Source: a virus. From it: 10,665 bases of DNA. The stretch lies in UHGV virus genome UHGV-2171516, one strand, 5' to 3'. How positions within the stretch are numbered: the first letter of the stretch is position 1; each line of letters starts with the position of its first letter. Made by a program: the position numbers and the translations under genes. Positions 78 through 9,821 of the stretch are shown one piece after another. Under the pieces are notes generated by a model. The model saw only the letters and a list, made by a program, of their open reading frames with translations. It was not told the DNA's origin and searched no databases.

Positions 78-1736
78 ATGGAGCTGACGATCACGCCGAA
101 TTTTGCACAGGAACGAGCGTTAAACATGTTGCGCCGTGACTGGAAGGCAAACGACACCTTCATGGTTTACTCGCCAACAGGTAGCGGTAAAACGGGTCTG
201 GCAGCCTTCATAGTTGCTGGTTTTGTCAGCCGTGGTATGCGTGTTCTGTTCTGTGTTCCGTACACCATCCTGATTGGTCAGACGGCTAATCGGTTCGTGC
301 AGTATGGTTTACCTGGAGATGAAATCGGTTATATCTGGGCGGATCACCCGAACTACGATCCGGACCGGAAAATTCAGATTGCCAGCGCTGACACGCTTAT
401 TCGTCGTGTTTTTCCTGAAAATATCGATCTGCTGATTATCGACGAAGCGCACCTGCGTAAAAAACGCATCCTGAAGGATATCGAACGTCTGCGCGGCAAA
501 GGCGTAAAAGTGATTGGCCTGTCGGGTACTCCGTTTTCTCCGTTCCTGGGCAAATACTATGACCGACTGATTAAGCCGACCACCATCGGCGAGTTAATCC
601 AGCGTGGCGATCTGAGTAAATACGAATTTTACGCGCCAACTAAGCCGGATCTGAAAGGTGTTAAAACCACATCTTCGCTTGAGTACGGCCGCGATTACAA
701 CGAAACACAGCTGGCTGAAATCATGTGCGGCTCTACGCTGGTGGGCGACATCGTACAGAACTGGCTGGAGAATGGTCGGGATTTACCTACCATCGCTTTC
801 TGCGTCAACGTAGCTCACGCCAATTATCTGACAATCCAGTTTAACCTGGCGGGTGTTAACGCTGAGGTAATGACCGCCGACACTCCGGTAGATGAGCGCC
901 AGACCATCATTCACCGCTTTGAAACCGGTGCAACGAAAATCATCGTTAGTGTGGGCGTTCTGGTGGCCGGCTTTGATAGTGACGTTCGTTGCATCATCTA
1001 CGCCAGGCCAACAAAAAGCGAAATTCGCTGGTTGCAGGCTCTCGGGCGTGGGCTGCGCACCGCACCGGGTAAAGAGTCCTGCCTTATCTTCGATCACAGC
1101 GGCACCGTGCACCGTTTGGGTTATCCGGATTCAATCGAGTACGACGAGCTTCCCGGTAAGTCTGACGGCATGGAGGAAAGCGCGCGCCGGGCAGTTGAGG
1201 AACGGGCCGAAAAACTGCCACATGAATGCCCTCAATGCCACTACATGAAGCCAGCAGGCGTCTATGTTTGCCCGAAATGTGGACACAAGCCGCTGCGAGG
1301 TGAAGACGTTGATACTGACACTAGCCGCAAACTTAATAAGCTGGGTAAAAATCAGCATCAGTCGACGAAGGCAGAGAAACAGTCCTGGTGGAGTCAGATC
1401 AAATTTTATCAGCGCCAGCGTGCTTCGCTGGGGCGTCCAGTCAGTGACGGATGGTGTGCTCACACTTTCCGGGAAAAGTTCGGTGAGTGGCCTGACGGAC
1501 TGAGTAACTTTCCGATGGAAATTACCCCTGAGGTAAATAACTACATCAGACACAAACTGATCCGGTTTGCCAAAGGCCACCAGCGGGTTCAGAAGGTCAC
1601 TGAAAACGCACAAACAACGATTGATTTATCTCAGGAACGTGATGAACGACGTGAGATACCGGCAGGCAGTGAGGCCTGGCGCATCATGCAGGCAAAGCAC
1701 CAACTCCAGAAAAATATAAACAGTCTGAGTCAGTAA
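78..1736 (+). CDS. Phage replication helicase, superfamily 2 (DEAD/DEAH-box type) with C-terminal zinc ribbon
   Basis: 552-aa ORF. Walker A SPTGSGKT near the N-terminus, DEAH box in LLIIDEAHL, SAT-like GLSGTPF, helicase C-domain motif QALGRGLR, C-terminal CPQC...CPKC pair. SD GGGAG at 66-70, 7 nt before the ATG. Stop TAA 1734-1736 is one base from the next start. Confidence 0.85.
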   Translation: MELTITPNFAQERALNMLRRDWKANDTFMVYSPTGSGKTGLAAFIVAGFVSRGMRVLFCVPYTILIGQTANRFVQYGLPGDEIGYIWADHPNYDPDRKIQIASADTLIRRVFPENIDLLIIDEAHLRKKRILKDIERLRGKGVKVIGLSGTPFSPFLGKYYDRLIKPTTIGELIQRGDLSKYEFYAPTKPDLKGVKTTSSLEYGRDYNETQLAEIMCGSTLVGDIVQNWLENGRDLPTIAFCVNVAHANYLTIQFNLAGVNAEVMTADTPVDERQTIIHRFETGATKIIVSVGVLVAGFDSDVRCIIYARPTKSEIRWLQALGRGLRTAPGKESCLIFDHSGTVHRLGYPDSIEYDELPGKSDGMEESARRAVEERAEKLPHECPQCHYMKPAGVYVCPKCGHKPLRGEDVDTDTSRKLNKLGKNQHQSTKAEKQSWWSQIKFYQRQRASLGRPVSDGWCAHTFREKFGEWPDGLSNFPMEITPEVNNYIRHKLIRFAKGHQRVQKVTENAQTTIDLSQERDERREIPAGSEAWRIMQAKHQLQKNINSLSQ

Positions 1737-1737
1737 G

Positions 1738-2706
1738 ATGAAAACAGCAGATGCAGCGAAAGGCCGCTGGCCTGAAATATTAGAGCACTTCGGTCTGCCG
1801 CCGATAACCGGAAAAAATCACTTCAAGGGTGAATGCCCGGTATGCGGTGCACGTGGCAAGTTCCGAATTGACGACCGCGACGGTGCAGGAACGTGGATCT
1901 GTGTATGTGGTAGTGGCGATGGTATGAAACTTGTCACCCTGACACAGGCGAAGCCATTTAACGAGATTTGTACCGAAATAGACCGCCTGATCGGTAATGA
2001 TTACCAACGGGTTAAAATCCCGGTAACCAGCAGCGCCACCAGCTTACGCAAACGGGTATTGAGCAAGTTTTCAAAACTGGAGGCACTGCGTGGTACATCC
2101 GGCGCAGCGTATCTTAATTCTCGTGGAATATTCAGTCTTCCTGCTGAGGCGATCCGGTTCAATGCCAGGCAGAGACACAACGGGAGTGTGTTCCAGTCTC
2201 TTTATTCACTTGCTACGGACGATAAAGGGGAGTTGTGCTATCTGCACCAGACTCTGCTTGATGGTGATAAAAAAGCAGATATCGGTAGCAGTGCAAAGCG
2301 CCTCAAATCCCTGCAGGAAGATAACTATTTGGATCACGCTCGTTCTGTAGCTATCCGCATGTTTCCTGTCGCCAGCACTCTGGGTATCGCCGAAGGCATC
2401 GAAACAGCGCTGTCAGCGCACCAGATTTATAACGTGAACACCTGGGCAACCATTAACAGCGGCTTTATGAAAAAGTTTCGCGTACCAGCTGGTGTTCTGC
2501 ACCTGATTATTTTTGCCGACCGTGACGAGAACAGCGCCACCGGGCTGGCTGCGGCTTGCGAATGTGCTCATGCCAATCTGATGGCAAAGAATGACCTGCA
2601 GCGCGTGAGCGTGTACTGGCCGGATCACGATGATTTCAACAATATGCTCATGAACGGTGATCAGGTTCGAGAGCTGGTTTTCCATAAGAAAAAGGCGGTT
2701 GCGTAA
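1738..2706 (+). CDS. Phage DNA primase (P4-alpha-like zinc-binding ribbon plus Toprim domain)
   Basis: 322-aa ORF. N-terminal CPVCG...CVCG zinc ribbon, Toprim signatures AEGIETALS and FADRDEN (DxD). ATG 1738 follows the helicase stop directly (TAAgATG), suggesting translational coupling. Confidence 0.75.
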   Translation: MKTADAAKGRWPEILEHFGLPPITGKNHFKGECPVCGARGKFRIDDRDGAGTWICVCGSGDGMKLVTLTQAKPFNEICTEIDRLIGNDYQRVKIPVTSSATSLRKRVLSKFSKLEALRGTSGAAYLNSRGIFSLPAEAIRFNARQRHNGSVFQSLYSLATDDKGELCYLHQTLLDGDKKADIGSSAKRLKSLQEDNYLDHARSVAIRMFPVASTLGIAEGIETALSAHQIYNVNTWATINSGFMKKFRVPAGVLHLIIFADRDENSATGLAAACECAHANLMAKNDLQRVSVYWPDHDDFNNMLMNGDQVRELVFHKKKAVA

Positions 2707-3563
2707 TGCGTACTGATAATAACGAACATAAAGCACTATTCACCATCCCGACGGCAGCGTACAGCTCCGCCCTCGCAAACATCAAGCCCCTGCCAGAGCA
2801 ACGGAGAATCACCGGGCATAAGCAGACTGATGCTTATCTTTGGGTGCTGGAGGTTATCCGTCTGAACGAACCCGCACATCTGGATGCTGCTGAGGCTGCG
2901 CTGGTGAAAATTAAAATTTCCCCAAAAGAGGCTCAGGAACGCTATTCGCGTTATCTGCTGGCGAATGGTTACGAACCTTTCCAGGTTGCGTTCGGCATCA
3001 TCGGCATGGATAACCCTGCGCAGGTTATCAGGAACGCCCGGGAGAACATCAAAAAAGCGGCATCAGTCAGGGCTACGTTTGGTAGCTATGAAGCAGCGCT
3101 CGAAGATGTGGAAGCAGAGCGGGTCATCAGGTCTTCCCAGAAATTTATCAACGATCATCTCTGGGGCTGGACTGCGGCAGAGAAAAAAGCCGGAAGCATT
3201 GGCGGCAGCCGCATGAACGAAATTGATGAACAGCGTCGGGCATTTGTTGATGGATATCGCGATGTGCTGCCTGAGCCTTATACGCTGTCTGATGTTGTTC
3301 GCGAGTTCGTTTACTGGGACTGGCTCTACAGTGTTCGCCACACTGCAACTAAAGAACAGGGCGATGAGTTTGGTTACTCTGAGCATCACGAATCGGTATA
3401 TGACCGCGAGCGCTACCTTGAAAAATTGCTGGCAACCATCAAACCGGTGACACGCGCTGAAGCCGTGGAGGTGTGCCGCTGGTTTCTGGCAAGTGGTAAG
3501 GGTGAATGCATGGAAGACGACGGTGCAGCGGTCATTCTCAATCTGGTTGGGGAGTGTGAATAA
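2706..3563 (+). CDS. Hypothetical phage protein, function unknown (sits where the nin region lies in lambdoid phages)
   Basis: 285-aa ORF in codon-like frame. Start overlaps the primase stop (TAATG) and its stop overlaps the next start, so it is part of the coupled operon. No motif I recognise. Confidence 0.6.
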   Translation: MRTDNNEHKALFTIPTAAYSSALANIKPLPEQRRITGHKQTDAYLWVLEVIRLNEPAHLDAAEAALVKIKISPKEAQERYSRYLLANGYEPFQVAFGIIGMDNPAQVIRNARENIKKAASVRATFGSYEAALEDVEAERVIRSSQKFINDHLWGWTAAEKKAGSIGGSRMNEIDEQRRAFVDGYRDVLPEPYTLSDVVREFVYWDWLYSVRHTATKEQGDEFGYSEHHESVYDRERYLEKLLATIKPVTRAEAVEVCRWFLASGKGECMEDDGAAVILNLVGECE

Positions 3564-4378
3564 TGAAGCTTGAGGCATCGCTAAAATACTTCAGTCCTCA
3601 GGGAATGTATATCGGCGACGATGTGAAAGGAACCTCTCCGGAACGTCTTACAGGCACCGATGTTATGGCGGCTATTGGTACCACCAGTAATCGTGAGCGG
3701 TTTGGCCTGGCGGCCTTCTTCGGGAAGGCCGGTATCAGCAAGACTGATGAGCAGATGGCAGTCCAGGCGCTGGCGCGTCACGCGATGGAAATTGCACCGA
3801 AGAATGTGCGTAAAGCAGCTGGTGGTGAATTTGGCTGGTGTATGCTGGTACTGGCTCAGTTTGCTTTTGCTGAGTATTCCCGATCGGCGGCCACCAGCGT
3901 AACATGCCATAGTTGCAGTGGTACCGGACTAACACCCCGTAAGCAGGTCATTCGTAAGGTTTCATACCCATGGGGTAAAGCACCATATTGGGCCAGTCGC
4001 TCCCGTGCTGTTCGACCGTCAGACTGGGAAAGATGGACAGAGGTAACGGAAGTTGTACCAGTCGTTTGCGATGTATGTAAAGGGAAGGGAGTGATAAGTG
4101 CCAGGTGTCGTTGTGGTGGAAAGGGAGAGGTACTGGACCGCAAAGCCACAAGCGAGCGTGGTGTGCCAGTGTTTAAAATCTGCGAGCGTTGTAGTGGAAA
4201 GGGATTCGTATCTATCAAATCAGCTAATGTTCATCGAGCTATTCAAATATACATTCCCGATCTGCACCAGTCTTCATGGTCGCGCAATTGGAAACCATTC
4301 TATGAAAAATTGATTGATATCCTGCATCAAGGTGAGCGGCATGCGGCTAGAGAATTTGAGAAGGCAACGAGTTACTGA
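3563..4378 (+). CDS. Q: Putative late antiterminator Q (phage 82 / QuuQ-like size class) with four CxxCxGxG zinc-finger repeats
   Basis: 271-aa ORF. Last gene before a promoter-like element, a strong terminator and the tRNA cluster, which is the Q position in lambdoid and Stx phages. Four repeats CHSCSGTG, CDVCKGKG, CRCGGKG, CERCSGKG. GGGGAG SD upstream; start overlaps the previous stop. Family assignment is by position and size, not sequence recall. Confidence 0.55.
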   Translation: MKLEASLKYFSPQGMYIGDDVKGTSPERLTGTDVMAAIGTTSNRERFGLAAFFGKAGISKTDEQMAVQALARHAMEIAPKNVRKAAGGEFGWCMLVLAQFAFAEYSRSAATSVTCHSCSGTGLTPRKQVIRKVSYPWGKAPYWASRSRAVRPSDWERWTEVTEVVPVVCDVCKGKGVISARCRCGGKGEVLDRKATSERGVPVFKICERCSGKGFVSIKSANVHRAIQIYIPDLHQSSWSRNWKPFYEKLIDILHQGERHAAREFEKATSY

Positions 4379-4417: not shown

Positions 4418-4447
4418 TTGACTTTGCATAAAATTGTCTTGTATCAT
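4418..4447 (+). promoter_or_regulatory. Candidate late promoter (pR'-like): -35 TTGACT 4418-4423, -10 TATCAT 4442-4447, 18-bp spacer
   Basis: Sigma70-like hexamers directly downstream of the Q-like gene, about 40 nt upstream of a strong intrinsic terminator. This matches the lambdoid pR'-tR' arrangement. Not validated. Confidence 0.35.
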
Positions 4448-4488
4448 TTTAATTATGGGGTTTAGCGCCAATATAAAAATTAACACGG

Positions 4489-4512
4489 AACCCGCTTTAT
4501 AGCGGGTTTTTT
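4489..4512. terminator. Rho-independent terminator (tR'-like), usable from both directions
   Basis: 8-bp stem AACCCGCT / AGCGGGTT with TTAT loop, followed by a T6 run on the + strand. It lies 2 nt beyond the stop of the minus-strand gene 4515-5459, so it can also end that transcript. Confidence 0.65.
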
Positions 4513-4514
4513 AA

Positions 4515-5459
4515 TTATGGTAAATTTTCCATAAATTTCTTAAATAGTAATTTGTCTTTATTGCTTACAGATTTCTGAATGTTAAGTAATGCACGTAAAG
4601 GTTTAAGGTTTTCTCTTGTTGCAAAAACCCTGGATTTTTCTAAGCGTTCCTGAGCAAAGTTAAAGCGTTCTCTTAATCTTGAAACCTTTATTCCAAAAGA
4701 CAACACCTCTCTTTCAGTCAATTCATCTGGGGTACATTTGTTTAATTTTTCCAGAACCATTTTTATATCTCTTTCATAAAGAAGAGCAATGTCATAATCA
4801 TTCAGCAAGCATTCAGGGTATTGTATTACCCCAATAAGTTCATTTACGGTTTTGTTTTTGTTGTTAACTTTTGGAGCTGAGTCGCTTGTTTGCTTCTGGG
4901 ACATAATTTCGTCCAGTTCTAGCTCTTCTGTATTTTTTAATCTTGAGCGGAAAACACGCCCATCACCAGAAGCAGCCATCTTTTTCAATGTTTGATAAGC
5001 CGCACGCCCGATGATTTTAGGGTCTTTCATGTCAAGTATTCTATGAGCAACCTCAGTTAGTGATGGACGCCCAGATTCGATTTTGGCTTTGAGTTTGTAA
5101 TAGCTAAAAATATCATCTTTTGCCTCTTTAAGTGCGGTAAGTAAGCGATGGAAATCTGCTTTTCGGCAAAGTTCTATTGCTAAATTATCAAATGCTATAC
5201 CAAAAACATTAGTTCCACATACATGGCCGATATTCGTTTCAAATCCTTCTTTCGTAACTACCAGAAATCCCTTTTTATGCCCTTTGCGGCAATTTGATTT
5301 TCCACATGGAATTTCCTCTGGTAGGTCATCGTAGTAACCAAAAACGTCAGAGAGTTGCTGATCATTTAACTCTAATTTGGGATAGTAAGACTCTCTCGCC
5401 TGAATTTCTGCCCAGTCATTCACGCGAATAAAACTTTCGCCATTCTTGAGAAAAATCAT
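4515..5459 (-). CDS. Hypothetical 314-aa protein on the opposite strand; AT-rich moron, candidate accessory or defence gene
   Basis: Long ORF antisense to the phage backbone, visibly AT-rich against GC-richer flanks. Good SD AAGGA about 5 nt before the ATG (reverse complement of 5457-5470). Flanked by an AT-rich upstream region 5460-5580 and the terminator at 4489-4512. Cysteine/histidine cluster CGKSNCRKGH...HVCG; no family recognised. Confidence 0.7.
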   Translation of the reverse strand: MIFLKNGESFIRVNDWAEIQARESYYPKLELNDQQLSDVFGYYDDLPEEIPCGKSNCRKGHKKGFLVVTKEGFETNIGHVCGTNVFGIAFDNLAIELCRKADFHRLLTALKEAKDDIFSYYKLKAKIESGRPSLTEVAHRILDMKDPKIIGRAAYQTLKKMAASGDGRVFRSRLKNTEELELDEIMSQKQTSDSAPKVNNKNKTVNELIGVIQYPECLLNDYDIALLYERDIKMVLEKLNKCTPDELTEREVLSFGIKVSRLRERFNFAQERLEKSRVFATRENLKPLRALLNIQKSVSNKDKLLFKKFMENLP

Positions 5460-5583: not shown

Positions 5584-5656
5584 AGCCATTTTAGCTAAAT
5601 GATGAGAGCGAGTTATAATCGCCAGGTCGCTGGTTCAAATCCAGCAAGGGCCACCA
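5584..5656 (+). tRNA. tRNA-Ile-like (ileX/ileZ-like) with intact 3' half but degenerate 5' acceptor and D arm; possible pseudogene or fragment
   Basis: 3' portion ATAATCGCCAGGTCGCTGGTTCAAATCCAGCAAGGGCCACCA closely resembles the E. coli tRNA-Ile2 3' half as I recall it (T arm GCTGG/CCAGC, acceptor 3' strand AAGGGCC, discriminator A, CCA). The upstream sequence does not supply a matching GGCCCTT acceptor strand or a clean D stem. The anticodon loop reads GTTATAA (UAU) in my fold. Confidence 0.4.
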
Positions 5657-5663
5657 TCACATA

Positions 5664-5740
5664 CCGCCATTAGCTCATCAGGATAGAGCGCCAGCCTTCG
5701 AAGCTGGTTGCGCGGGGTTCGAGTCCTCGATGGCGGTCCA
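5664..5740 (+). tRNA. tRNA-Arg (anticodon UCG)
   Basis: Hand-folded cloverleaf: acceptor CCGCCAT/ATGGCGG, D stem GCTC/GAGC, anticodon stem CCAGC/GCTGG with loop CTTCGAA, T stem CGGGG/CCTCG (one G-U) with loop TTCGAGT, discriminator T plus CCA. 77 nt. Confidence 0.75.
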
Positions 5741-5754
5741 TTTATCGGCATTCT

Positions 5755-5831
5755 GCGTTGTTAGCTCAGCCGGACAGAGCAATTGCCTTCTAAGCAATCG
5801 GTCACTGGTTCGACTCCAGTACAACGCGCCA
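5755..5831 (+). tRNA. tRNA-Arg (anticodon UCU, argU/argO-like)
   Basis: Hand-folded cloverleaf: acceptor GCGTTGT/ACAACGC, D stem GCTC/GAGC, anticodon stem ATTGC/GCAAT with loop CTTCTAA, T stem ACTGG/CCAGT with loop TTCGACT, discriminator G plus CCA. 77 nt; resembles E. coli argU. Confidence 0.85.
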
Positions 5832-5846
5832 CACTTATTTTTTTCT

Positions 5847-5868
5847 GGCTTGCTTCGGCGGGCCTTTT
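5847..5868 (+). terminator. Weak intrinsic terminator-like hairpin after the tRNA cluster
   Basis: Stem GGCTTGC / GCGGGCC (two G-U pairs) with TTCG tetraloop, then TTTT. Confidence 0.3.
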
Positions 5869-5896
5869 AGTTGCTGAAAAAGAAAACACCAGGTGG

Positions 5897-5930
5897 TTAG
5901 CAGGGTATCCGTTACCCTGCTAAATTTTTA
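5897..5930 (+). terminator. Strong rho-independent terminator
   Basis: Perfect 11-bp stem TTAGCAGGGTA / TACCCTGCTAA with 5-nt loop TCCGT, followed by A then TTTTT. Confidence 0.65.
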
Positions 5931-6144
5931 AATACCTCACAATTCAGCAAGTTGATGATTGTCTGGCTGTCAGGGATTTTGTTAAAAAAATCCTGCATGG
6001 TGAATCCCCCTGAGCGGAGGGGCGACTGGTGACGGTATAATCTCTGATTATCAAAACGAGAATGACGCGGGTTTAGTGGCACCGGGCTGAACTCACCGGG
6101 AGGCACCCGGCACCATGTGCATGATGATACAGATACGCGGCTTT

Positions 6145-6171
6145 AGCCCCTCTCCGGAGGGGCTTTCTTGT
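6145..6171 (+). terminator. Terminator-like hairpin
   Basis: 8-bp GC-rich stem AGCCCCTC / GAGGGGCT with TCCG tetraloop, then TTCTTGT. Confidence 0.45.
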
Positions 6172-6175
6172 GGGC

Positions 6176-6202
6176 AAAAAAAAAGCCCGAGTGGGTTCGG
6201 GC
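6176..6202 (-). terminator. Rho-independent terminator oriented for the minus strand
   Basis: On the + strand an A9 run followed by stem GCCCGA / TCGGGC with loop GTGGGT. On the minus strand this is a hairpin followed by T9. Confidence 0.5.
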
Positions 6203-6257
6203 AACAGCATGAGATATACATTTTTATAATCGAATGGATTTTAACCAGAATTCATAA

Positions 6258-6284
6258 GGCTGCGCAACTGCGTGGCCTTTTTCG
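6258..6284 (+). terminator. Terminator-like hairpin upstream of nanS-p
   Basis: Stem GGCUGC... / ...GCGUGGCC (includes G-U pairs) followed by TTTTTCGTATT. Confidence 0.4.
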
Positions 6285-6384
6285 TATTGCGGGCTGTAGT
6301 TTTCCTCCTGCCATTGTCCTGTAACTTCCGGACTTCAGCCCGCCCCTCATCTGACTCACAACATTATCCCGACCGGGAGGATTC

Positions 6385-8367
6385 ATGACATTTAAACACT
6401 ACGATGTGGTCAGGGCGGCGTCGCCGTCAGACCTTGCGGAGCGACTGACACAAAAACTGAAGGAGGGGTGGCAGCCATTTGGCAGTCCGGTGGCCATCAC
6501 GCCCTATACCCTGATGCAGGCCATTGCGGCGGAAGGTGATGTCACCACACCGGTGGTGGTGCAACCGTCGGGTGATGGTGGCGCTGTTATCAGCACCACC
6601 AGCGAACCGGAATATTACTTTGTCATTGCGCTGGCCGGGCAGTCCAACTCGATGTCTTTTGGCGAGGGGCTGCCGCTGCCGGATACGTATGATCGTCCTG
6701 ACCCGCGTATTAAGCAACTGGCGCGTCGCAGCACGGTGACACCGGGCGGTGCGGCCTGTGCATATAACGACATTATTCCTGCAGACCATTGTCTGCATGA
6801 TGTGCAGGACGTGAGTAATCTGAATCACCCGAAAGCAGACCTCAATAAAGGGCAGTATGGCTGTGTGGGGCATGCCCTGCATGTGGCCAAAAAACTGCTG
6901 CCGTTTATGCCTGCCCGTGCGGGGATCCTTCTTGTCCCGTGTGGACGTGGCGATTCGGGATTTACTGCGGGAGCAGAGGGCGCGTTTAATGAGGCGTCGG
7001 GTGCGACAGCGGGCTCTTCCCTGTGGGGGGTGGATAAACCGTTGTATCGTGACCTGGTCAGCAGAACGCGTGCAGCCCTGAAGAAAAATCCGAAAAACGT
7101 GCTGTTGTCGGTGATCTGGATGCAGGGGGAAAAAGATGTCAGTTCGGGGAGACATGTAGAGCACAATGCACTTTTTCTTGCCATGGTAAATAAATACCGT
7201 GCAGACCTGGCAGATATTGCAGACCAGTGTATTGGCGGGACAACGTCCGGCGTCCCGTGGATTTGCGGTGACACCACGTACGACTGGAAGGCGAAGTATG
7301 CAGTGCAGTATGAGGCGGTTTACGGAGGCTATAAAGGCAAGGCGGCGCAGAATATTCACTTTGTGCCGTTGATGACGGATGAGCATGGTGCGAATGTGCC
7401 GACAAACGAGCCGTCAGAAGATCCGGACATTATCACGGCGGGATACTATGGTGCCGCGTCACGCAGTAATGGTAACTGGACGACAGCCGATCGTAAAACG
7501 CACTTCAGCTCCTGGGCGCGAAGAGGCATTGTTTCAGATCGGCTGGCAGGAGAGATACTGGTGCGAGCCGGGCGTTTGCTGCCGTTCCTGAGCGGGCAGT
7601 CTGCACCGCTGGCGACCACGCCAGCCTCCACGGGGGATGCACAGTCTGGCTCTGCGGGTCCGACGCAACAGCAGGGTGCAGGTACTTCTGCAGGCGGTCA
7701 TACTGAAGCCGTAACAAGAATGGTGGCCGGATATGATGCGAACAGTGGCAGTGGTGTATGGACAGAGCAGCAGTGGAATGCGTCCGGTGGTAAAGGCACT
7801 GTGACGGATGACAGTGGCAGGAAGGCGCTGCGACTGGAAAAACAGCCGGGTAAACTGACCTCCTGGAAGATGTTCCGTACTGTTGCGGTGGAGGAGGCAA
7901 AAAATCTTCTCAGTAAGGGGGGGGAAATTGCCGTGCGGTTTAAGATCCCGGAGGGTGTCGAACTGGTTAACGGTCAGTTTGTCTTTGGTCTGTACTGGCC
8001 GGTGTCGCAGTGGGCGTCAGGCGCGACAGCAAACAGCATGCTGGCGTCCTTCTTCCTTCAGACGGATGCATCAAATCTGAATCTGATGTACCACAAGGGG
8101 GAGTCGAATGCGCAACTGGGCACATTTGGGGCATTTGACCATAACTGGCATACAGTTGTTTTCCGCTTTGCGGGAAATAACAGCGAAAAAGTGGTGCCGG
8201 TGATTGATGATGCAGAGCAGTCTGCGTTTGACCTTGTGATGTGGACAAATGATGGCTTTACAGCAGATACGCTGACGCTGACAGATATCACGGGGGCAAA
8301 AGCGACGTATCCGGTACTGCTTGATACGGTCACAGTCAAAGTTAACGAAAGCCGGGCATCATCATAA
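6385..8367 (+). CDS. nanS-p: Prophage-encoded sialate (9-O-acetyl-N-acetylneuraminate) O-acetylesterase, NanS-p / YjhS-like (SGNH/SASA esterase with N-terminal DUF1737-like and C-terminal lectin-like domains)
   Basis: 660-aa ORF. N-terminal MTFKHYDVV... segment typical of phage NanS proteins, SASA-type block ALAGQSNSMSFGEG, Gly/Ser/Gln-rich linker, long C-terminal domain. SD GGGAGG at 6375-6380. Same place as the yjhS homologue between toxin locus and lysis genes in Stx phages. Confidence 0.85.
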   Translation: MTFKHYDVVRAASPSDLAERLTQKLKEGWQPFGSPVAITPYTLMQAIAAEGDVTTPVVVQPSGDGGAVISTTSEPEYYFVIALAGQSNSMSFGEGLPLPDTYDRPDPRIKQLARRSTVTPGGAACAYNDIIPADHCLHDVQDVSNLNHPKADLNKGQYGCVGHALHVAKKLLPFMPARAGILLVPCGRGDSGFTAGAEGAFNEASGATAGSSLWGVDKPLYRDLVSRTRAALKKNPKNVLLSVIWMQGEKDVSSGRHVEHNALFLAMVNKYRADLADIADQCIGGTTSGVPWICGDTTYDWKAKYAVQYEAVYGGYKGKAAQNIHFVPLMTDEHGANVPTNEPSEDPDIITAGYYGAASRSNGNWTTADRKTHFSSWARRGIVSDRLAGEILVRAGRLLPFLSGQSAPLATTPASTGDAQSGSAGPTQQQGAGTSAGGHTEAVTRMVAGYDANSGSGVWTEQQWNASGGKGTVTDDSGRKALRLEKQPGKLTSWKMFRTVAVEEAKNLLSKGGEIAVRFKIPEGVELVNGQFVFGLYWPVSQWASGATANSMLASFFLQTDASNLNLMYHKGESNAQLGTFGAFDHNWHTVVFRFAGNNSEKVVPVIDDAEQSAFDLVMWTNDGFTADTLTLTDITGAKATYPVLLDTVTVKVNESRASS

Positions 8368-8372
8368 CCGGC

Positions 8373-8409
8373 AAAAAAAACCGCCAGCGGCAGAAACGGA
8401 AGCTGGCGG
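8373..8409 (-). terminator. Rho-independent terminator oriented for the minus strand, just 3' of nanS-p
   Basis: A8 run 8373-8380, then 8-bp stem CCGCCAGC / GCTGGCGG with a 13-nt loop. On the minus strand this is a hairpin followed by T8; there is no T tract on the + side. Confidence 0.45.
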
Positions 8410-8506
8410 AGGTAATCCCAATGGAGAATGTAAAGAAAAGATGCTTTCGTATATCGGTTTTTTAAATGAAAACAGTTCTCATTGTCAACCATAACGGTAA
8501 GAAACT

Positions 8507-8701
8507 ATGACATTTGTTCATCAGGTGATGCTGTACTTCTGTACGGCGGTCTGTGTGCTGTATCTTCTTTCGGGTGGGTACAGGGCAGTGCGCGATTTCT
8601 GGCGCAGGCAGATTGATAAAAGGGCCGCAGAGAAAATCAGCGCCAGTCAGTCAGCCGGAGCAAAAACAGAAGCCCCACTCATTCCGGAACAACCTTCTTA
8701 A
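8507..8701 (+). CDS. Small hypothetical membrane protein (64 aa, one predicted transmembrane helix)
   Basis: ORF with hydrophobic stretch VMLYFCTAVCVLYLLSGGY and a charged C-terminus. Weak SD (GGTAAGAAA). Sits between nanS-p and the holin. Confidence 0.4.
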   Translation: MTFVHQVMLYFCTAVCVLYLLSGGYRAVRDFWRRQIDKRAAEKISASQSAGAKTEAPLIPEQPS

Positions 8702-8726
8702 TAACCCCTTTCAACGAGAAAATCCT

Positions 8727-9017
8727 ATGTCAGAAATAAAATCGCTGGTCACTGCTGAGGCAGTGAAGGAAGTCCTGCGCTCTGAAGAAGTCCGGAGCGC
8801 ACTGAAACAGCAACTTCGGCAGAACCTTGAGGCGCGTCTTGATGCAGAAGTGGATTCAATTCTGGATGAATTGCTTGGTGCACAGCCGGAACCATCCCCG
8901 GAACTGCTTCCGGAACCACAGGCGGAAGATGTCACCACGGAAAATGGTGATATTCAGCCGGAGTCACCGGTGACGGATATGACAGACACACAGCCAGAAT
9001 CGGGCACAATGCTGTAA
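8727..9017 (+). CDS. Hypothetical acidic protein (96 aa) with Pro/Glu-rich C-terminus
   Basis: In-frame ATG at 8727 within track ORF 8553..9017; the longer 154-aa form overlaps the previous ORF and lacks an SD. Followed by a terminator-like hairpin at 9028-9060. Confidence 0.45.
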   Translation: MSEIKSLVTAEAVKEVLRSEEVRSALKQQLRQNLEARLDAEVDSILDELLGAQPEPSPELLPEPQAEDVTTENGDIQPESPVTDMTDTQPESGTML

Positions 9018-9027
9018 CGGTGAGTCA

Positions 9028-9060
9028 GGGTCATCAGTAAAGAGCTGGTGGCCCTTTTGT
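9028..9060 (+). terminator. Terminator-like hairpin upstream of the holin
   Basis: 10-bp stem GGGTCATCAG / CTGGTGGCCC (two G-U pairs) with loop TAAAGAG, followed by TTTTGTTGTTG. Confidence 0.4.
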
Positions 9061-9092
9061 TGTTGTGAGCTTCCGAGTACGGGAGACGGGGT

Positions 9093-9308
9093 ATGTACCA
9101 GATGGAAAAAATCACAACAGGTGTGTCATACACCACGTCAGCGGTGGGAACGGGCTACTGGTTCCTGCAGTTGCTGGACAGGGTTTCCCCGTCTCAGTGG
9201 GCGGCAATAGGCGTGCTGGGGAGTCTGCTGTTTGGGCTGCTGACATATCTGACGAACCTGTATTTCAAGATTAAAGAAGACCGGCGTAAGGCGGCGCGGG
9301 GAGAGTAG
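9093..9308 (+). CDS. S: Class II holin (pinholin), phage 21 S-like, with dual-start motif
   Basis: 71-aa ORF strongly resembling the phage 21 S holin as I recall it ([21 protein letters not shown]...[21 protein letters not shown]). Met1 and Met4 (MYQMEK) fit the antiholin/holin dual start. SD GGGAG upstream. Confidence 0.9.
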
Positions 9309-9311
9309 ACG

Positions 9312-9821
9312 ATGAATAAACAATACGAACTGGTTGTTAAAGGGATAAATAATTACCCGGATAAGATTACTGTTACTGTAGCGCTGGAAACGGGTGGGTA
9401 TACGTCACTGTTGTTGCCAAATGTGGTGATTGATCTTGATCGTGTTGAAGGTGCCCCGCTGGAGTTTTACGAAGCTGAGGCGAAAAAGAAGGCGAAGCAG
9501 TTTTTCATGGATATTGCTGCCGGGTTATGTGAAGGGGATGAACAGTCACAGGAAAAGTGCCTTTGTTCCGAAGATCGGTATACCATACAAATTAACAATG
9601 CATATAACACGATACTGTCAGAAAAAGATGATATCGAATCACGCATTGAAAAACTGGAGAATTGCGTCGTTGAACTGAATAAAAAACTGTCGACGCTGAT
9701 GCCTTCTGAAGATGCAAAAAAACGCCGCGATGAGCAGTTCGCGGCGTTTTACGATTATTGCATTGAAGTTACTCGCAGGAATTTTGTGAAGGCTTTTGAG
9801 GAGAGTAAATCTCTTCAGTAA
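9312..9821 (+). CDS. Hypothetical 169-aa soluble protein inserted between holin and endolysin
   Basis: ATG 4 nt after the holin stop, with SD GGGGAGAG (9298-9305) lying inside the holin 3' end. AT-richer than the flanking lysis genes. No transmembrane segment; coiled-coil-like stretch SEKDDIESRIEKLENCVVELNKKL; no family recognised. Confidence 0.6.
   Translation: MNKQYELVVKGINNYPDKITVTVALETGGYTSLLLPNVVIDLDRVEGAPLEFYEAEAKKKAKQFFMDIAAGLCEGDEQSQEKCLCSEDRYTIQINNAYNTILSEKDDIESRIEKLENCVVELNKKLSTLMPSEDAKKRRDEQFAAFYDYCIEVTRRNFVKAFEESKSLQ

Follow-up and report, generated by a model that had tools for sequence, protein, structure and literature searches.

A phi80-like long form of the antitermination protein Q with two predicted tandem zinc ribbons in a lambdoid prophage

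The open reading frame (ORF) considered here spans positions 3563..4378 on the plus strand of the viral sequence UHGV-2171516, a stretch of 10,665 nucleotides (nt) referred to below as the window, and specifies a protein of 271 residues. It very probably encodes the late-gene antiterminator Q of a lambdoid prophage, belonging to the lambda Q family (PF03589) in the long form represented by phi80 Q and working, by homology, as lambda Q does. The four cysteine motifs of the protein are best read as two tandem zinc ribbons, in which motifs 1+2 and 3+4 would pair, and not as the interleaved arrangement of DnaJ. All features of the gene, its protein and the adjacent late-promoter region described below lie on the plus strand.

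Identity and architecture of Q

The ORF begins with an ATG that shares bases with the stop codon of the ORF before it (TAATG), and its extent is exactly as given in a first-pass annotation of this DNA. Pfam PF03589 ("Antitermination protein Q") matches it in two stretches with E=4.6e-51 and 171.3 bits against a cut-off of 26.7 bits, PHROG 127 ("anti-termination protein Q-like") matches over its full length with E=4e-98, and its closest solved relative is phage lambda Q (7ubm_Q, E=6.4e-33). Of the three unrelated Q families, Q-lambda (PF03589), Q21 (PF06530) and Q82 (PF06323) (PMC9388147), the latter two do the same job from the same genome position but have unrelated folds (PMC9388147), and neither matched the ORF at E<=1 or any of the ten other window ORFs scanned at E<=0.01. 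Membership in Q82 or Q21 was accordingly rejected, since the Pfam search gave only the Q-lambda family among the three, and a comparison with phage 82 Q, as had been recommended, is off target, the relevant relatives being lambda Q and phi80 Q. The suggestion that Q may be missing, with late control working differently, is likewise not borne out, and no second Q was found among the other window ORFs or in the 29-kb annotated stretch of the matching Escherichia coli prophage. The protein is already correctly annotated, as "antitermination protein" in the RefSeq records of E. coli chromosomes and as "antitermination protein Q" in phage vB_EcoS-611R1, where a 99.6% identical protein is found in the same gene order as in the window.

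HMMER aligns the protein to lambda Q in two pieces, residues 1-123 to lambda 1-126 and residues 179-260 to lambda 115-197, from which it follows that about 66 extra residues (112-178) are placed directly before the lambda-type ribbon. Within the first piece the N-terminal ~44 residues (3563..3694) align to lambda Q 1-44 and are homologous to its torus/nozzle segment, where helices 1-11 and 32-42 make the torus (PMC9388147); the AlphaFold 2 (AF2) model of this part is a helix-loop-helix (helix 3-10, loop, helix 31-44), and the segment is conserved in the window Q, with G39 invariant in 35 homologues of 67-99% identity. There follow the extra zinc-ribbon module (residues 112-179, 3896..4099), the core zinc ribbon homologous to the lambda Q "arm" with motifs 3 and 4 (4100..4210), and the C-terminal part of the helical body (4211..4375), aligned to lambda Q 153-197, a region that includes H4-H5, the helix-turn-helix (HTH) (PMC9388147). 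The presumed recognition segment of the HTH is QSSWSRNW (residues 236-243, 4268-4291). Lambda Q (PDB 4MO1, 7UBJ-7UBN) has the N-terminal segment, the helical body with its HTH, the zinc ribbon and the fold in common with the window Q, but is only ~30% identical overall, lacks the ~66-residue extra module, and has CRDC instead of CRC as the first knuckle of the shared ribbon.

The long architecture is already present in two known proteins. The phi80 Q (gp17; NC_021190) has 270 residues, the motifs CDCCDGGG, CKPCNGKG, CRCHGKG and CDRCGGRG and a near-identical hairpin tip (see below), but is ~40% identical overall and 18-37% in the body, and differs in both its HTH segment and its spacer element (TCGCGGA...). 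Its genome record has pR', a Q site in the spacer and a terminator annotated, and its DNA-binding regions were the subject of Guo & Roberts 2004, as cited in PMC9388147. QuuQ/YdfT from the Qin cryptic prophage of E. coli K-12, which had been proposed for comparison, is 36% identical (E=4e-49) with four cysteine motifs in the same order, but has 250 residues, a shorter hairpin between motifs 1 and 2, and CRGC in its third motif.

Cysteine motifs and the extra ribbon

The four motifs reported from the first pass are all present, namely CHSCSGTG (motif 1, residues 115-122, 3905-3928), CDVCKGKG (motif 2, 169-176, 4067-4090), CRCGGKG (motif 3, 182-188, 4106-4126) and CERCSGKG (motif 4, 207-214, 4181-4204), and chance does not account for them: in 200,000 shuffles of the protein three or more motifs never occurred, and two occurred 14 times. 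They had been assigned to the C-terminal half, but with a span of residues 115-214 they reach from the middle of the protein into its C-terminal part. Described likewise as four DnaJ-type CxxCxGxG repeats, they fit this pattern exactly in motifs 1, 2 and 4, but the third is C-x-C-x-G-x-G and thus one residue short, as it is in most relatives. None of the eight cysteines or of the motif glycines varies in the 35 homologues, nor in 33 arm segments down to 29% identity. When 53 long and short members of the family are aligned, the only invariant columns are C182, C184, G186, C207, C210, G212 and G214, all of which belong to motifs 3 and 4.

Motifs 3 and 4 can be equated with the ribbon of lambda Q, since the cysteine columns, the spacing (22 residues between the cysteine pairs, equal to lambda C121 to C144) and the common "ARCR(D)C" all match the four zinc-binding cysteines of lambda, which hold a single zinc in the zinc ribbon known as the Q "arm" (PMC9388147). 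The ribbon of lambda Q itself contains the CxxCxGxG knuckle twice, as CRDCHGTG and CGRCKGVG. By elimination, motifs 1 and 2 should then bind a second zinc. The first-pass view of a Q-like protein that departs from the single ribbon of lambda is right in that this is a Q with a doubled set of motifs, although half of that set is lambda's own ribbon. The segment with motifs 1 and 2 is a gap in lambda Q and the other short forms, both in the alignment of 39 genomic relatives and in that of the 53 long and short members; the two motifs are absent together from the short forms, that of lambda among them, and many short forms start their ribbon with a "CRC" of the motif 3 type.

Between motifs 1 and 2 AF2 predicts a long beta-hairpin with strands 123-134 and 157-168, both when the whole protein is modelled and when the module is modelled by itself. 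Among cluster representatives the distance between motifs 1 and 2 ranges from 14 to 63 residues, while that between motifs 2 and 3 is almost always 13 (11-15 in three representatives) and that between motifs 3 and 4 is 23-27. In the 225-residue protein of locus L017 motifs 1 and 2 are nearly adjacent. A self-comparison by BLASTP finds that motif 2 and its preceding strand resemble motif 4 and its preceding strand, if weakly (E=0.003), which is suggestive of an origin of the extra ribbon by internal duplication of the ribbon unit. The predicted hairpin, the pattern of motif distances and this resemblance all agree with ribbons in tandem.

The hairpin tip, KVSYPWGK.PYW...SRAVRPSDWE.WT, recurs in near-identical form in phi80 Q. 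Over residues 131-158 its identity is 79% with phi80 Q and 93% with the Franconibacter Q of locus L032 (deposited as Enterobacter pulveris), whereas the bodies of these proteins are just 18-38% identical. Conversely, the Q proteins of L008-L012 have bodies 87% identical to that of the window and yet carry an unrelated, shorter hairpin. By these comparisons the Q genes are mosaic, and the hairpin of the extra ribbon (residues 123-168, 3929-4066) behaves as an exchangeable module that has been swapped independently of the rest.

The notion that such a zinc module would be unusual for the family is not borne out. Besides phi80 Q and QuuQ, all 39 full-length genomic relatives carry the four motifs, their hosts being Citrobacter, Enterobacter, Photorhabdus, Providencia, Xenorhabdus, Proteus, Erwinia and others. 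Searched exhaustively, a collection of 1.8 billion cluster representatives gave 59 matches of 185-300 residues, all representatives at 50% identity, and 31 of these have at least four cysteine pairs while 14 have two, in a set that leans to long forms because it was retrieved with a long-form query. By these sequence comparisons the two-ribbon form is common in the family. The solved structures of the lambda family are nevertheless all of the short one-ribbon form, although the two-ribbon form is the more frequent one in this set; no structure of a long-form Q was found in the PDB, and full-text literature searches returned no paper describing a two-ribbon Q.

Late promoter region and Q-binding element

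Forty bases past the Q stop codon begins a region that resembles the lambda late promoter in its layout. The candidate promoter proposed earlier at 4418..4447 was found again as a PR'-like sequence with ten of twelve consensus matches, in which a -35 hexamer TTGACT (4418-4423) and a -10 hexamer TATCAT (4442-4447) are separated by an 18-bp spacer. The search for a Q-binding element that had been advised for its surroundings yields the candidate TTGCATAAAATTG in the spacer (4424..4436), which is identical in 12 of 13 positions to TTGAATAAAATTG at the equivalent place in lambda, the 13-bp register being that of our own alignment since the lambda element is numbered only in figures. A candidate sigma-dependent pause element, a -10-like AATTAT followed by GGGG, is found at 4451..4460; in lambda this is AACGAT with GGG, and in related loci AAT(N)(A/G)T followed by GG, or by AG in four loci. 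Further on lies a tR'-like intrinsic terminator (4487..4516; GGAACCCGC-TTTATA-GCGGGTT and a T run), recovered by a terminator scan and by RNA folding (-20.6 kcal/mol, z=-3.35, none of 200 shuffles as stable), which is ~30-60 nt past the likely start site and has a hairpin and T run at the equal relative place in most related loci. Rfam contains no known RNA matching 4450-4520.

Promoter, element, pause element and terminator are found in this layout downstream of Q in most of the 39 related loci as well as in lambda and phi80. A distance of 14 nt separates the final "TG" of the element from the pause element both in the window and in lambda, and again in the 25 related loci matched by a TG-N14-pause-element pattern, while the promoter hexamers drift by 1-3 bp among loci, which fits a Q that acts on the paused complex and not on the open one. 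Comparison of the related loci revealed no conserved DNA beyond the lambda-like 13 bp.

The predicted Q-binding site at 4424-4436 is best supported by the covariation of the HTH with the spacer element. Among loci drawn from L004-L042 and lambda (L001), an HTH with Q-S-S/T-W-S (residues 236-240 of the window Q) goes with the spacer element TTGCATA in 13 of 13 loci, x-R-T-W-T/R with TTGTCC in 17 of 17, and Q-P-T-W-S with TTGAATAA in 4 of 4, lambda included, so that the classes of HTH and element correspond in 34/34 loci with zero cross-class cases, these being counts of loci and not of independent events. The classes furthermore cut across the rest of the protein, since the Photorhabdus loci L019 and L024 are otherwise close and yet differ in both helix and element. 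Such a correspondence might be used to predict, from sequence, where the Q proteins of the lambda family bind.

By homology with lambda Q (PMC9388147), the HTH of the body and the zinc-ribbon arm would bind the 13-bp element in the promoter spacer while RNA polymerase is held in a sigma70-dependent pause at AATTAT-GGGG. Q would contact this paused, sigma-containing polymerase and then transfer to it, and together with NusA its first ~44 residues would fold into a nozzle at the RNA-exit channel and prevent the formation of terminator hairpins. Modified in this way, the polymerase would pass the terminator at 4487-4516 and those further on, and so transcribe the tRNA, esterase and lysis/morphogenesis genes, in which case this prophage controls its late genes in the textbook manner.

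Alternative interpretations

Apart from the covariation being counted over loci, several points weigh against a lambda-like Q that works at these elements by way of two tandem ribbons. Six of the 39 related loci do not have the promoter layout within 120 nt, and the consensus promoter scan taken alone is not significant, with 7 promoters found against 3.6 expected. The -10 hexamer is 3 nt upstream of the pause element, as compared to 6 nt in lambda and 5 nt in most relatives, and the presumed start site would then fall inside the pause element, with a paused RNA, at the predicted pause position, of an estimated ~12-14 nt, which is shorter than the +16/+17 of lambda. The zinc pairing, finally, is itself inferred. 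It may be mentioned that the short spacing is a feature of a subgroup formed by the window and L006-L017, in which it occurs with an 18-bp spacer, most relatives having a 17-bp spacer.

It is quite improbable that the four motifs, whose repeat pattern had first been likened to that of the DnaJ zinc-finger domain, make up a DnaJ-type cysteine-rich domain with interleaved zinc centres (1+4 and 2+3) and a chaperone-like or otherwise new protein-binding function. The likeness to the DnaJ domain resides in the zinc knuckles, repeated four in a row with three exact matches to CxxCxGxG, in a match to the DnaJ_CXXCXGXG profile (PF00684, E=5e-6) that is also precomputed in public data for many homologues, and in the short and nearly constant distance of 13 residues between motifs 2 and 3, which could in principle be a zinc hairpin. 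The profile reaches however only 27.1 bits against a cut-off of 32.7 and covers residues 169-216 alone (motifs 2-4), the NCBIfam DnaJ models score far under their cut-offs, and Pfam finds neither a J domain nor the DnaJ C-terminal domains in the ORF. A DnaJ-type InterPro match on a lambda-Q-like phage protein is already in print (PMC5313236). Furthermore, pairing 1+4 and 2+3 would break the conserved lambda ribbon, which has such knuckles of its own, and an interleaved arrangement would not tolerate one-sided changes in length of the kind seen between motifs 1 and 2. The cysteine motifs are thus not a DnaJ domain, whose interleaved zinc centres sit in a V-shaped hairpin fold, whereas the window Q is read as having its ribbons in tandem. 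Many homologues (P0001-P0120) also have a precomputed Pfam match to PF27659.1. A very remote prospect is that this is the non-functional relic of a gene, in a cryptic prophage whose late control is independent of Q. Homologues such as QuuQ/YdfT do reside in cryptic prophages and the portal gene of the matching E. coli prophage is frameshifted, but the ORF is intact with every family-invariant residue, the record of a sequenced phage genome has the 99.6% identical protein amid genes arranged as in the window, no other Q family turned up among the window ORFs scanned, and the set of promoter, binding element, pause element and terminator is intact and fits the HTH class of the protein.

If the protein is a two-ribbon Q, the extra ribbon could act as another arm that reads DNA and thereby extends or alters the Q-binding element, giving a long-form Q a larger site than that of lambda Q. 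The arm of lambda contacts DNA at positions 11-13 of its site (PMC9388147), the extra module is inserted beside this DNA-contacting arm, and the tip of its hairpin contains several Arg and Lys residues. Such a function is nonetheless unlikely, as near-same tips (79-96% identical) occur with at least four spacer elements, TTGCATA (window, L004), TTGTCC (L006, L007), TCGCGGA (phi80) and ATTCGGAA (L032), one element class is found with different hairpins, and no conserved DNA was seen past the lambda-like 13 bp. Because the tip is conserved across divergent bodies and is paired with this many elements, it seems more likely that the extra ribbon contacts a conserved host component (RNA polymerase, sigma or NusA) than that it reads DNA bases. 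Put more specifically, and quite tentatively, the extra ribbon, whose hairpin has strands of ~12 residues and a highly conserved tip (YPWGKAPYW...SRAVRPSDWE.W), may be a second, exchangeable arm by which long Q proteins of the phi80, QuuQ and window type contact RNA polymerase, the repositioned sigma region 4 or NusA at a place untouched by lambda Q. Were this true, loading onto the polymerase would, for most Q proteins of the lambda family, differ somewhat from that in the only example solved.

Genomic context

The window matches a lambdoid prophage integrated beside yecE in E. coli, in which integrase, excisionase, a LexA-type repressor, helicase, primase, a hypothetical gene and Q are followed by two tRNA-Arg genes, a sialate-esterase-like gene, holin, lysozyme, lysis protein, terminase, capsid and portal, with the genes from lysozyme to portal (lysozyme, lysis, terminase, capsid, portal) on the same strand as the late region. 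The replication module upstream of Q (78-3563) is not of the lambda O/P and nin type and consists of a DEAD/ResIII helicase (78-1736), a zinc-ribbon/Toprim primase (1738-2706) and a 285-residue protein of unknown function (PHROG 6204, 2706-3563) that is translationally coupled to Q.

The late region that would be read by the Q-modified polymerase extends over 5585..9821 on the plus strand. It starts with a weak tRNA-like sequence (5585-5653, Rfam 32.6 bits) upstream of both tRNA-Arg genes (TCG, 5664-5740, and TCT, 5755-5831), and continues with the small RNA (sRNA) STnc100 (5966-6175, Rfam 158.7 bits), the SASA esterase (6385-8367), DUF1378 (8507-8701), DUF826, the holin (9093-9308) and DUF1327 (9312-9821); all of these are on the plus strand. 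On the minus strand, the "anti-stx2 sRNA" AsxR at 6180-6232 scores exactly at the Rfam gathering threshold. The arrangement of tRNA genes, STnc100 and AsxR is the layout of the late regions of Stx phages, the stx genes themselves being absent here.

Between the PR' terminator and the tRNA genes, a minus-strand ORF of 314 residues (4515-5459) is oriented opposite to late transcription, at a site that in related phages is taken by stx or other cargo. Neither Pfam nor PADLOC gives a match to it, and PHROG 7003 (unknown function) is the only family that does; its GC content is 34-39% against ~50-55% in the flanks, and it has the look of acquired cargo. The hairpin at 4487-4510 directly adjoins its stop codon and could end transcription arriving from either side.
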